Both the position numbers and the translations under genes were made by a program. A model generated the notes under the pieces. That model was given only the letters and a program-made list of their open reading frames with translations. It was not told the DNA's origin and did not search any database. DNA of 64,000 bases from Narcine bancroftii (taxonomy: Eukaryota), in contig NC_091470.1 of NCBI RefSeq assembly GCF_036971445.1, forward strand, positions 307,644,001-307,708,000. Direction: 5' to 3'. This document shows positions 18,617 to 25,197 of this stretch, piece after piece (the first letter of the stretch is position 1; each line of letters opens with the position of its first letter).

Positions 18617-19344
18617 GTAAGAGAAATCTACATGATCAACTTCATTGAGAAACAAGCATTGACTGTTGCCCTAAAATCATATTTGTAAGCATTAGCTCAG
18701 AAGTACAATGCATTCTCATGAATTTCATTTCAGACATGCTAGGGGATTCTTTTGTATATTTTAATGGGCTATTATCTATTAAATAAAGTGAAAGGAACTT
18801 CATGTTAAGCATTTGTTTTTTAGCAGTATAATTTCAGAAACAATATCAGTTGAATGTTGTATTTTAAATATGTTGTCAACTTCTGGCCTGAAAATGCTAA
18901 AATACAGGCACAATACTCCATATTTGATAGCCCAAAAACCGAAAAGACCCAAAATTCAAAACTTTTTTTGAGTGTCAACATGACTTCACAAGTGGAAAAT
19001 CCATACCTGACCTCACCATGGGCATACAAGACCTCCCCCCCCCACCATTTCAGCAGGGAATATTAAGAATTTTTAAAAGTGTATTTACCATCAGCGGGTT
19101 GCCAAAGTTGGGGGGGTGGTGAGGGCGTGGTGTTGCGATGCAAGGGAACCAGCGCAGGGACCGACATTGGGCTGCCTTGGGGTGGGGTGGGGGGGAGGAG
19201 CGGGGAAGTGGGACCAGTGCGGGGACCGACAGCAGGCTGCTGGGGTGTCGGAAGCAGGGCGGTGATCAGTGTGGGGACCAACTGCAGGCTGACATTGTTC
19301 CAAAATCCAAAACTCTGGTCCCAGGCATTTTGGATATGGGGTAC

Positions 19345-22300
19345 TGATAGGCCATAGACATGGACTAGACAAGTGCTATATTAATGCAGTGCTTTTATTA
19401 ACAGACTCTCAGCCACCATTATACTTGCCAGTGGGAAAGCATCACCATTTGTTATACCAGTAGGGTGGAGCATCTCTATAGCCATTGCCAATAGCAAGTA
19501 ACTCCATACATGAGAAGCAGACAGTAAAATATACCCCCCATTACATCATCACATTCACCCCCCACAAAAATCGACCAATTTTATTAAAATATTATACTGA
19601 TCAAAGCAAAAGCTGGAAAAGCAAGCAGGTTAAAAATTTCAGAGGTAAAGGGTGACAGCAGGATAATACAAACCCAGAATTAATTGGAACACAGACCAGA
19701 AAACAGGCTACAGAGATTACATTTAATACCCTTGGTAATTATGTCTACAACTAGAAATGGTCATAACACAGTCTCTGCTGAGGTTTAGAAATATGAGCAG
19801 ATCTGCACAAAGGCACTGGTGGGAGCAGAGCTTGATCTCCTAACGAAGGAGTTTTCGCACCAGCTGTGGAAGGGAGTGGAGAGCGGGAGGCAATATTGTC
19901 ACGTGGAGAGTATTGTTCCTTGGGTAACTGATTTTCTCCTGGTGGGGAGGGCAGTGAGGGTGTCAGAATAGTGGAAGGGCTAACAGACTGCAGACCAGGT
20001 GAAGCCAGGTCTCTAAGTGAAATGGTGTCCTCTCTCCCATCAGGAAAAGCAACATGAGCATACTGTGGGTTAGCATGAAACAGTTGAACACGCTCTACAA
20101 GCAGGTCAGATTTGCTGAGTCTAACGTGTTTTCTTAATAAGACTTCTTCGAGCTCAGATAGCCAAGGCCGATCCAATCTTCGACTTTCTAGGGAAAGTAA
20201 AAACACGTTGGTGAGGACTTTCATTGGTAGCTGTACAAAGCAGTGTGCAAATAGAGCGGCTGGTGTGGAAACTTTTCGACTTCAGTGCAAGAGTGATAGC
20301 TTTCCAGATTGTACCATTACCATGCTCCACCTGACCATTTCCCCACGGGTTATAGCTTGTAATACGACCAGTAGCGATTCCCCTATCAAGAAGATATCGC
20401 CTAAGTTCTGTATTTATGAAAGCTGACCCTCTGTCACTATGAATGAAGTTAGGATAACCGAAAATACTGAAAATCATATCAAGACATTTAATAACAGTAC
20501 TAGCAGAAAGACCTCAACAATGAAGACACTGTTTACATCCGGTACCGCACGGATGGCAGTCTCTTCAATCTGAGGCGCCTGAAAGCTCACACCAAGACAC
20601 AAGAGGAACTTGTCCGTGAACTACTCTTTGCAGACGATGCCGCTTTAGTTGCCCATTCAGAGCCAGCTCTCCAGCGCATGACGTCCTGTTTTGCAGAAAC
20701 TGCCAAAATGTTTGAGCTGGAAGTCAGCCTGAAGCAAACTGAGGTCCTCCATCAGCCAGCTCCCCACCATGACTACCAGCCCCCCACATCTCCATCGGGC
20801 ACACAGAACTCAAAACGGTCAACCAGTTTACCTACCTCGGCTGCACCATTTCATCTGATGCAAGGATTGAGAACGAGATAGACAACAGACTCGCCAAGGC
20901 AAATAGCGTCTTTGGAAGACTACACAAAAGAGTCTGGAAAAACAACCACCTGAAGAAATACACAAAGATCAGCATGTACAGAGCCGTTGTCATACCTACG
21001 CTCCTGTTCGGCTCTGAATTACGGGTCCTCTACCAGCATCACCTACGGCTCCTAGAACGCTTCCATCAGCGCTGTCTCTGCTCCATCCTAAACATTCATT
21101 GGAGTGACTTCATCACCAACATCGAAGTACTCGAGCTGGCAGAGTCTGCAAGCATTGAATCCACGCTGCTGAAGACCCAACTGCACTCGGTGGTCACGTC
21201 TCCAGAATGGAGGACCATCGCCTTCCCAAGATCGTGTTATATGGCGAGTTCTCCACTGGCCACCGAGACAGAGGTGCACCAAAGAAGAAGTACAAGGACT
21301 GCTTAAAGAAATCTCTTAGTGCCTGCCACATTGACCACCGCCAGTGGGCTGATATCGCCTCCAACTGTGCATCTTGGCGCCTCACAGTTCGGCGGGCAGC
21401 AATCTCCTTTGTAGAAGACCGCAGAGCCCACCTCACTGACAAAAGACAAAGGAGGAAAAACTCAACACCCAACCCCAACCAACCAATTTTCCCTTGCAAC
21501 CGCTGCAACTGTGCCTGCCTGTCCCGCATCGGACTTGTCAGTCACCAACGAGCCTGCATACCCCTCCATAAATCTTCATCCGCAAAGCCAAGCCAAAGAA
21601 AGAAAGCAGAAACATCAGCACATGGTATAGCAAAGGGAAAACTAGAGAATTCATCATATTATTGTTTGAGGGTAGTGGTCCTTTAATATCCACGCTGAGG
21701 CGTTCAAAGGGACTTGACGCCTTAATCAGCGTAGAAGTGGGAGACTTGTAATAGTGTGGTTTACACTCCGCACAGACTGCACACTCGCTAGTCAATTTTT
21801 TGATACCTTCTCGTGAATATGGCAAATTGAGGGACTTAACATAATGATAAAATCTAGTGACCCCTGGGAAACATAATTAATCATGAAGACCTTTCAAATA
21901 GTCCAGCTGCTGACTTGGACTTGGACAGGACATGGGAGAAGAGCATCTGGGGGGTGGGGTTCATTGAACTTTCCTGGGCGATAGAGTATATCGTAATCAT
22001 AAGTAGAAAGCTCAATTTGCCAATGCATGATCTTATCATTTTTAATCTTGCTCTTCAATTTAGTGTTGAACATGTAGGCAACAGATTTTGATCAGTCAAT
22101 AAATGTGAATTTCTTTCTGGCTAAAAAATGTCTCCAATAGTAAATGGATTCTACAATGACTCATGCTTCCTTTTCAATAGAGGATTGCCTGAGATCCAGC
22201 CCATGTAATGTCCGAGAGAAAAAGGCCACAGGTCTACCAGCTTGATTTAGCATAGCTACTAAGGCCTAATCAGATGTGTCAGATTCCACTTGGAATGGTA

Positions 22301-24768
22301 AATCCTCATCAGTAGCTGACATTGTCGCTTTGGCTATATCTTGTTTGATATGTTCAAAAGCACAGAGGGCTTCTTCAGACAGGGGAAAACTAGTTGTTTA
22401 AACAGTGGATGTGCCTTATCTGCATAATTCAGCACCCAATAAGCGTAAAAGGAGAAAAAAACCCAGGCAGTGCTCGAGGTACTTTTGCGTTGCAGGTTGG
22501 GGCAGCTCCATGAGTGGTCTCATTCTCTCTGGGTCAGAGCTGATTTCGCTTCTACTCACAACGTAGCCCAGTATAGCCAGGCATTTAGTGTGGTATACAC
22601 ACTTATCATTGTTAAGGGTCAGGTTCAGATCCTTGGCTACCTGGAGGAACTTCTCTAAATTACAATCGTAATCATTTAAGTCCTTGCTACATACAGTGAC
22701 ATTATCCAGATAAGGGTAGATGGCTTGCAAGTTGTGAGCGTCAACTAGCTTATCCATTTCTCTTTGGGAAACTGAAACACTGTTGGTAACTCCAAAAGGG
22801 ACCCTTTTATATTAAAATAATCTGCCATCTGCCTCAAAAGCAGTAAGCTGCCTTTCATCCTTGTGAATGGGCACCTGATGGTAGGCTGATTTCAGAACAA
22901 TTGTGGAGTATATTTTGTATTGTGCAATCTGGTTTCCCGTGTCTGAGATACGTGGCAGGGGATAAACATCCAGTTGCGTAAACCTGTTTATAGTTTGACT
23001 GTAGACCATGACCATTCTACGTTCCGCCCCGTTTTTGACAACTAATACTTGGGCACGCTAAGGACTTGTACTGGGTTTGATGATTTTTTCTCTCGATAAA
23101 TGACTAACCTTGTTCCTAATAAAGAGTCTGTCTTCTTTCCTATAGTGCCTACTCTTTGTAGCTATAGGCTTACAATCCGGGGTTAGATGGTAAAAGGACG
23201 TGGAGGTTTAATCTTAAAGGGTTGATGACCCATAAACAGCCTCTTGGGGTACCGTGATCATTGGTAGTGGGCTGTTAAATGCCAGTACAATACTTTTCAC
23301 AGGGTACTGGAAATCTAGCCCTAATATCATTGGAGTGCACAGACCGGGGAGCAGGTGTAATTTGAAATCTTTGTACTTGTTTCCCCGAACTTTCAGGGTT
23401 ATTCTGCAGCAATGTGTAACGTCTCGTTTTAGTCCATAGATATTTTATGCTTAGATGGATACAGGTTAAGATTCGGGGAGCTTGTGGTCGTAGGATGGAT
23501 ATAGCTGTCAGTACTGCCCAAATCAGACAATCAACAGGCTCCCCATTTACCTTCACCTTCATCGTGGAATGCTTCATTCTGTGGGGTTCATCTTGGTTTA
23601 TCATCATCCACGCCAGAACAGGGCCTTCCCACGACAGCGATCTGTCGGAGCGCGCCTTGTCACTGGCAGTTCCACTCACAATTTTGGAAGGTGTCAGATG
23701 AATCTTTGGCTCTCCAAGTCAACACAGCAGTCTCATGGTGGTGCCCCTGCTTATTAGCAGTGCTTGTGCACTTCTTCTTTCTTCTCTTCAAATCATGGCG
23801 TGAGCCAAATGAGGACTTTCACGCCTGGCAGGCTCTGGCCCAGTGCCCTCACTTTCTGCAATTGGCACAATCGGCTCGTTGTGCAGGGCACTGTGAGCAT
23901 ATATGCAGTGCCAATCTGTAGAAGTAGCAACTTCTGTAGCAGCCTTTACACTGTGGTTTAGTGGCACTTAGCAATGGATCATTGCTGTGGGCGGGCTTCA
24001 GGGGTGCCACTTCAGCACCTCTTTCCTTCTCAAGAGCTTTAGCGCTTTGTAGCGCAACCCTAAAGGTCTTCAATTGTTGTAGAGCAACATTAAAGGTTAG
24101 GCCCGGGGTCTCCAGTAATTGTTGTCTGATGTACCCCGACTCCAATCCACTTATGAATGCGTCCAACATTAAGGATTCTCGGTGGGCTTTGATCGTGACA
24201 GCAATGCAGGCACAGGTTCTGGATAGCCCTTTTAGTGCAAGCACAAAAGCATCTTCGCTCTCTCTGGCTTGTTGTCTTTGAGTGTGAAGTTGATGTCTTG
24301 AAAACAAAGTATTTTGTGTCATATCTCAATAGGTTCTGAGGAGATTCAGTGCATTCTGGTAGATAGCGGTCTGCCTAACCATGGCGAGCCACAAGATGGT
24401 CCATCTTCACAGCGTTTTGCACAACGTTGTTCACTTGCTTTTATGCTTCAAAACACTGGAATCAGTGGTGAAAAATTTCTCCAGCTCGGGTGGCATCTTG
24501 ATCTATCTTGAGTCTTCCAGCTTTCAGGGAAGTATCCATGATTGAGAGTCTGTTAATAAAATTGATTTGCATAGACGTGGACCAGACAAGTGTTACAGGG
24601 CTTTTATTAACAGACTCTCAGCCACCGCTATATTGGCCAGTGAGAAAGCATCTCCATCTGTTATACCAGTTGGGTGGAGCATCTCTACAGCCATAGCCAA
24701 TAGTAAGCAATTCCATACATGAGAAGCAGTCAGTATAATACAACCCCCCTCCCCATTACATCATCACA
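19345..24768 (-). mobile_element. Full-length degenerate Ty3/Gypsy retrotransposon (Mag-like), TSD GGTAC
   Basis: LTRs 24563-24768 and 19345-19553 (TG..CA); PPT at 19554-19564; gag (RQQLLE, double Zn knuckle), protease, RT (YPYLDN), RNase H and integrase (IHSDRGS) remnants; GGTAC at 19340-19344 and 24769-24773. Confidence 0.95.
20510..21604 (+). mobile_element. 5'-truncated RTE LINE nested in the Gypsy integrase, TSD AGCAGAAA
   Basis: Closely similar to 14048-15156; (AGAA)n tail; TSD 20502-20509 and 21605-21612; removing it restores PCADVSASTVIKCLDMIFSIFGYP. Confidence 0.93.
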
Positions 24769-25197
24769 GGTACCGAACCTGTACTTTACCAGTTGGCAAT
24801 GATGCTTCAAACTTCATGTTCTACATTTGCTCCTTCTCATGTTCTGTATTCCAAACAGCTTGAACCCTGGCTGCTGATTCTCAACATTGGCTTCTAAAGC
24901 TTTAGATCTTTGCTCTCTCCCTGACTTTCCAATTGGATTCTATTGCACTCCTTTCATCTCAGTGCTCTTTGACTTGTCTTTCAGATGGCTGAGTTGACAA
25001 ATTATTTTTTCCCTAATGTCTTATCCCACCTGCATATGATTGAAACCATTAATCAGAACTTTAAGGATTTAAGCCCTTTCCCTATTAGAAACTGGTATTT
25101 CCAGACAAAAGCAATGGTAAGTCATCAGATACGGCAGTATTCAGATGGGCTGTTAAGATCTTCAAGATTTTTAAAATGTACATTTAATTTTTAAAAA

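Follow-up and report, generated by a model that had tools for sequence, protein, structure and literature searches.

A probable self-priming stem that also covers the 5′ poly(A) signal in most families of an animal Ty3/Gypsy clade

Mature tRNAs all end in CCA, so that the standard primer site of an LTR retrotransposon begins with TGG. Tf1 and Tf2 of Schizosaccharomyces pombe, Tj1 of S. japonicus and the Tf1/sushi chromoviruses are Ty3/Gypsy elements that use no tRNA; instead, their own LTR RNA is complementary to the primer site. The Tf1 transcript pairs with this site through its first 11 bases and is cut by RNase H between bases 11 and 12 (PMC7175516, PMC4600332; also PMC5341516). Self-primers have also been predicted in plants, namely Tcn1 (Gypsy) and TAR/Houba/Osr-1 (Copia); these belong to other lineages and hosts than the elements described here and resemble them in having a self-complementary primer site predicted from sequence, and an overlap with a poly(A) signal goes unmentioned in the portion of the source drawn on (PMC6317226). 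Self-priming is listed for Tf1/sushi, Tcn1 and plant TAR in a number of sources (PMC6317226, PMC3601003, PMC6238403, PMC4600332, PMC7175516, PMC5341516, PMC2864245, PMC12789967), and hairpin priming has been proposed as ancestral (PMC3601003). For a stem that contains a poly(A) signal the closest parallel is offered by the polyA hairpin of HIV-1 (PMC2645353; PMC12789967). This is an RNA stem with AAUAAA which represses 5′ polyadenylation (PMC2645353); the hairpin is present at both ends, and 3′ enhancers are needed.

The element analyzed here is a decayed Ty3/Gypsy element with RT and integrase domains, located on the minus strand of the window, i.e. the whole 64-kb stretch of Narcine bancroftii NC_091470.1 that was studied. 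Its assignment to Ty3/Gypsy follows from LTRs of the TG...CA type, a target duplication, a polypurine tract and the domain order PR-RT-RH-IN; Ty3 RT gave the best PDB matches. The copy is dead, as it contains stops, frameshifts and a LINE insertion, and its two LTRs are identical at 176 of 199 aligned bases. Its features, in the direction of the element, are as follows.

24769..24773, minus strand: 5′ copy of the target-site duplication GTACC, 5 bp (from sequence).
24563..24768, minus strand: 5′ LTR (TG...CA), 206 nt (from sequence).
24697..24701, minus strand: CCAAT-box-like ATTGG, kept in related families (putative function).
24660..24665, minus strand: TATA-like TATAAC, upstream of the predicted start by 31 nt (putative function).
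24630..24636, minus strand: predicted initiator, reading YCAGT in most copies; its start A, at about 24634, precedes the arm by 14 nt (placed by spacing).
24602..24620, minus strand: LTR arm of the stem and predicted self-primer, with AATAAA at 24608-24603 (sequence, folding).
Within 24602..24620, minus strand: predicted cut near the LTR arm's 3′ end (AAA/GCC, the slash marking the cut).
24562..24601, minus strand: 40-nt loop, comprising the rest of R, U5 and a 1-nt spacer A at 24562 (from sequence).
24543..24561, minus strand: primer-binding site without TGG, matching the LTR arm exactly as its reverse complement (from sequence).
19760..24539, minus strand: decayed gag-pol with the gag ATG at 24539, 3′ limit approximate (reading frames, domains).
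Within gag-pol, minus strand: RT at about 23057-22419, RNase H up to about 21980, integrase split by the LINE (domains).
20510..21604, plus strand: LINE fragment, presumably RTE-type, antisense in the integrase and flanked by an 8-nt repeat (from sequence).
19554..19563, minus strand: polypurine tract, ending in AA ahead of the 3′ LTR (from sequence).
19345..19553, minus strand: 3′ LTR; its arm copy at 19411-19393 has no partner downstream, and its AATAAA is predicted to be open (sequence, folding).
19340..19344, minus strand: 3′ copy of the target-site duplication GTACC (from sequence).

Behind the 5′ LTR a single A (24562) is followed by a 19-mer (24561-24543), ATC and the gag ATG (24539). 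An earlier note on this DNA had described the 19-mer as a perfectly self-complementary primer site without TGG, and this was reproduced at the same coordinates: positions 24620-24602 in the LTR are 100% complementary to it, 40 nt separate the two arms (the loop is 49 nt in most copies of the family), and the arm in the R region covers AATAAA. The longest inverted repeat expected by chance is much shorter, as 2000 shuffles of the 300-nt region gave 12 nt at most and 7.1 nt on average. In the 5′ context the stem folds at z = -4.5, and a comparable structure is absent from the 3′ LTR region. The note had also used the identity of the 19-mer in both LTRs as a supporting argument. This argument fails: at the observed LTR identity 19 identical bases are expected with P ~0.10, and as the copy is dead the identity is no sign of selection.

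The primer site was then compared with host tRNA ends, as the note had proposed, using a partial set of 27 distinct host tRNA sequences, which represent 13 anticodons. No 3′ end fitted, the best 3′-anchored match being 1 bp, and tRNA 3′ ends were rejected as primers for this reason. The best internal Watson-Crick match to the same 27 tRNAs was 6-7 bp, which is the shuffle level (~6); a tRNA D-loop gave 10-11 weak pairs once G-U was allowed, a figure obtained without a shuffle control. Control Gypsy groups in the same genome, Mag-type and Gmr1-type, do have TGG-type sites, and in the Mag-type family this is an ordinary TGGCGACGAGG primer site. Other Gypsy loci of the genome (L283, L284, L291, L292; L285, L289, L294; L271, L286, L287) comprise a young Mag-type family with a TGG site, decayed Gmr1-type elements that have the integrase ahead of RT, and sushi-type chromoviruses, likewise decayed; the labels are presumed or follow from domain order.

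The 3.3-Gb host genome contains at least 1137 LTR candidates and at least 1546 gag candidates for the family of the window element. The post-LTR motif was present, in some version, in all 30 loci taken from the LTR search; extra copies were collected by a search with the gag N-terminus in order to lessen bias (110 of 150 scored matches were taken). Altogether 133 family loci were read, with the LTR end findable in 124 and both arms in 111. An ordinary TGG site in other family members, which the note had set against its own reading, was not encountered: none of the 124 copies with a findable LTR end has TGG within 6 nt of that end.

A 13-bp core of the stem is common to the subfamilies, and positions 14-17 change by subfamily on both arms together, the variants being GAGAG/CTCTC, TTCT/AGAA, TTCR/YGAA, TTGAG/CTCAA and TTTAG/CTAA. 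Arms matched in 39 of the 53 copies that were typed exactly on both sides, against a mean of 11.9 and a maximum of 23 in 20000 shuffles; copies in a subfamily derive from few masters, so that copy counts are not independent, and the figure of 39 represents a handful of coordinated changes, not 39 events. The outer stem is mismatched in 14 of the 53, mostly through combination of two LTR types with the commonest primer site, which leaves 15 bp. Chimeric lineages of this kind (L009, L011, L029, L046, L060, L298 and others) carry one subfamily's LTR arm and another's primer site. Since such chimeras keep 15 bp the full 19 bp is unnecessary, and since lineages with the 15-bp stem have amplified, about 13-15 bp seem to be enough. 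In the gag tree of family copies, which is weakly resolved, a few copies with arm-matched primer sites are scattered among chimeras; this hints weakly that the primer is at times copied into the site. A lower arm divergence in subfamily-A copies (0.05 vs 0.12-0.19) was set aside, as these copies had been picked by arm sequence.

Searches with distant Gags revealed further families in the Narcine bancroftii genome, with different LTRs and with stems of 13-16 bp where intact; the gag search over all families yielded 15912 first-look candidates. Among close subfamilies of a second family group in this genome, one stem position is occupied by a T-A, G-C or C-G pair. One young clade family of the same genome (L288 and related loci) has identical LTRs, a 5-bp target duplication and long open frames, and its 16-bp stem is unlike that of the window element in sequence. 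Metagenome and MAG contigs contributed 90 loci, of which 34 had a locatable gag start or LTR pair and were tested; an exact stem of at least 10 bp was found in 22 and none in 12. Among these 12, L066 does show the stem once its position is corrected; L076, L130 and L137 are decayed, L098 and L115 have lost their 5′ arm and L103 its LTR, and the other five were not judgeable. The stem is also present in two more metagenome/MAG loci, L073 and L079.

Several of these loci have peculiarities of their own. In L158 (G000:C8, upstream of gag) a micro-inversion spanning the inverted repeat has turned the inter-arm loop around at the DNA level. In L079 about 17 nt behind the primer site recur further upstream in the LTR region. 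Ten contigs of bacterial genome records, mostly MAGs (L141-L150), encode this animal clade and are most likely host contamination. In L061, L062, L063, L065, L142 and L145 a small hairpin (ACCU/AGGU or GCCU/AGGY) begins with the base directly behind the arm; it could stack on the main stem where the cut is predicted. Hairpins flush with the arm end summed to 86, compared with a mean of 70 and a maximum of 83 in 300 shuffles, an enrichment due to a few related invertebrate-type families and absent in the family of the window element; we treat it as a hint only.

Pairing between primer site and LTR was compared across 21 family representatives, hand-picked from this genome and from metagenome contigs, some of them related, and with the LTR end set by eye in those without a 3′ LTR: primer sites paired with their own LTR at a mean of 13.05 of 14 positions and with other LTRs at 9.31. 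Pairing at 13 or more of 14 positions was seen in 17 of 21 self-pairs against 4 of 420 cross-pairs (permutation p = 1e-5). In a 29-row stem alignment positions 1-14 are paired in 24-29 rows, 11 of the 14 show 3-4 pair types, and pairing drops past position 14-17. The geometry is constant across families: the LTR end CA is followed by one base and TTT, and the arm ends in AAA followed by RCY, mostly GCC or ACC, with a loop of 35-66 nt. Compensatory change between the LTR 19-mer and the post-LTR 19-mer, which the note had suggested as a check, is present both within and between families. The stem is real, clade-wide and compensatorily conserved.

All stem-bearing loci and their homologues from ray, catshark, tunicate, anemone, nematode and insect fell into one RT-RNase H clade, with SH-aLRT support of 100 in a quick 48-row tree that omitted one short locus, and with 100/100 in a second, careful tree of 17 rows. 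The closest named proteins to the window element are from rays and catsharks. The host is a vertebrate, as the note had it, but with homologues in tunicate, anemone, nematode and insect the clade is not vertebrate-specific. The RT placement that the note had called for thus produced a single clade, but its position among relatives was less firm. The stem and chromovirus clades are separate in the RT tree (100/100 and 100/99), yet their union or sister relation was not rejected (p-AU 0.32), and on this figure an origin independent of chromoviruses was tested and found unsupported. A chromodomain or SH3_Tf2-1 at the integrase C-terminus was found in none of 7 clade polyproteins, and was found in most of the fish chromovirus polyproteins compared; in this, and in forming a separate RT clade, the elements differ from Tf1/sushi.

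The designation as Mag-like was not established. Polyprotein identity between the stem clade and the Mag-type family of the same genome is ~23%, and the sister link to this one family reaches only 75/81, with long branches and a Mag label that is itself presumed. Two Cys-His knuckles in Gag are a Mag trait, and a TGG primer site of tRNA type is typical of the Mag lineage. With that lineage (A, B and C clades) the stem clade shares short LTRs, a TGTNATR-like start, a compact gag-pol and two Cys-His knuckles in Gag; it differs in having no TGG site of tRNA type (0/124 copies), which is present in the Mag-type control of the same genome. The tree contains no named reference sequence. The clade's single frame of ~1200 aa and LTRs of ~245 nt presumably match Cigr-1 of Ciona. 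The self-primed Gypsy group that the note calls 'Selfy', if it exists as described there, may be this clade. A search for 'Selfy' with 'Gypsy' gave nothing in the literature covered, Repbase and subscription journals being outside it, and for 'Selfy' alone the matches listed were unrelated. No relatives of the clade were found among viral contigs, and the protein atlas matches bore generic Gag names only. The Mag C motif is given as TGTNATRT (PMC3601003); Cigr-1 has its own clade in the main text and a Mag label in a supplement row of PMC6238403, and the motif of the stem clade was not found in the portions covered of the text supplements of PMC6238403 and PMC8905726.

Overall, the clade probably starts reverse transcription from a piece of its own RNA, which would be cut close to the arm end, and the same helix is predicted to hide the 5′ poly(A) signal in most families. 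The tRNA-independent self-priming that the note had predicted is backed by the clade-wide compensatory change, the fixed geometry at the LTR end and the lack of TGG. By analogy with Tf1, the element RNase H would nick the RNA at or near AAA/GCC, the freed 3′-OH would start minus-strand DNA by copying U5 and the loop, and the first strand transfer would proceed via the short R piece behind the cut. Since the 3′ end of the arm adjoins the LTR end in the same polarity, an arrangement that priming of the Tf1 type requires, a cut at this point would give a 3′-OH that copies U5.

The primer is predicted to be internal because the spacing of TATA and initiator puts the start upstream of the arm, which would then be transcribed without being terminal. 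In several families a TATA-like motif and an initiator lie at -85 to -87 and -52 to -54, respectively, counted from the arm end; in the family of the window element the TATA-like motif is at -64, its match being weak (TATAAC), and the initiator at -33. The TATA-initiator spacing is 31-35 nt and the predicted start 14-37 nt upstream of the arm; several families have no clear TATA. The primer would be ~33 nt long in the window element and, for this genome's other families, ~53 nt; it would carry a 5′ leader of 14-37 unpaired nt, in contrast to the 11-nt 5′-terminal piece of Tf1. RNA contigs on a young clade family (three contig sets) showed no transcript start or end, and an A-rich loose end in 2-3 RNA contigs was not used because of low agreement. 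More tentatively, these elements may constitute a pan-animal Gypsy clade apart from Tf1/sushi in which the helix is a switch with two jobs, hiding the 5′ poly(A) signal in the nucleus and allowing, in the particle, a cut behind the signal that yields an internal, capped self-primer of 33-53 nt; we put this forward as possible, although rather doubtful in its entirety. An internal capped self-primer mode was not found in the papers searched.

The same geometry and covariation would be seen if these elements were plain self-primers of the Tf1 type, with transcription starting on or beside the arm's first base, a 5′-terminal primer and a poly(A) overlap that is incidental in a short LTR. This alternative could also explain why stem length is sharply limited, with pairing falling after position 14-17, and why the arm has no hexamer in 7 of 21 families, and the RT tree is compatible with a chromovirus union (p-AU 0.32). 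We consider it unlikely, as the family of the window element has no TATA-like motif ~30 nt upstream of the arm, and in several families pairs of TATA and initiator, 31-35 nt apart, are located 14-37 nt further upstream. The clade differs from Tf1 also in that the stem is 13-19 bp and not 11, and in the predicted internal primer with its 5′ leader, and from Tf1/sushi in that the arm often contains a poly(A) hexamer.

With respect to polyadenylation, formation of the stem is restricted to the 5′ end, because its partner strand is outside the LTR. For the window element, AATAAA was predicted to be unpaired with a probability of 0.01 in the 5′ and 0.91 in the 3′ context; the corresponding values for the intact young family were 0.01 and 0.48. 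The masking of AATAAA in the 5′ LTR only, as suggested in the note, therefore agrees with folding, but it does not extend to every family: a canonical hexamer is within the arm in 14 of 21 families, in the loop in 3 and nowhere nearby in 4. Since only 14 families have it in the arm, masking is not the reason for the stem; it is plausibly a second job, common but not universal. Unlike the HIV-1 hairpin, the helix would be confined to the 5′ end and would double as the predicted primer site.

It could be argued that the stem, like the HIV-1 polyA hairpin, only blocks premature polyadenylation, and that a host RNA such as a tRNA fragment acts as primer. Repression of the 5′ site by structure is known in HIV-1 (PMC2645353), the hexamer is within the arm in those 14 families and predicted to be closed in the 5′ context only, and the host tRNA set tested was incomplete. 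However, the stem persists in families without an arm hexamer, including the 3 with the hexamer in the loop, and its partner always begins 1 nt past the LTR end, which masking does not need. In addition, the letters of the site follow those of the LTR, which is impossible for an outside primer, and there is no space for a second site ahead of the ATG; priming by a host RNA is accordingly quite improbable. Finally, template switching can also make arms co-vary, and the inter-arm loop inversion in L158, the spread of chimeras with imperfect outer stems and the scatter of arm-matched sites among mismatched ones in the weakly resolved gag tree would fit a stem without selected function, produced by copying one arm onto the other, but we regard this as very improbable, since position, polarity, the AAA/TTT junction and a core of at least 13 bp are kept across unrelated LTRs throughout the RT clade, and since an LTR element must prime somewhere and another primer site is absent.

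Most likely, then, the stem serves as a signal for self-priming, known in its kind, in a lineage for which the literature searched, Repbase and subscription journals lying outside it, contains no description of self-priming ('Selfy' may be a prior name); its testable twists are the internal primer and the masking at the 5′ end only. Self-priming in Gypsy has been described for Tf1/sushi, and a further large clade, whose named protein members come from rays, catsharks, a tunicate, a sea anemone, nematodes and insects, would mean that priming without a tRNA is widespread among animals. The clade bears on whether hairpin priming is ancestral, as has been proposed (PMC3601003), or arose repeatedly. 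In annotation tools that depend on a tRNA site, its elements would be scored as having none. Both jobs of the stem are directly testable on short RNAs of ~100 nt. The problem of 5′ versus 3′ polyadenylation would be solved in a simple way by a primer site that lies outside the LTR and also closes the 5′ poly(A) signal, and self-primed elements would probably evade control by tRNA fragments.
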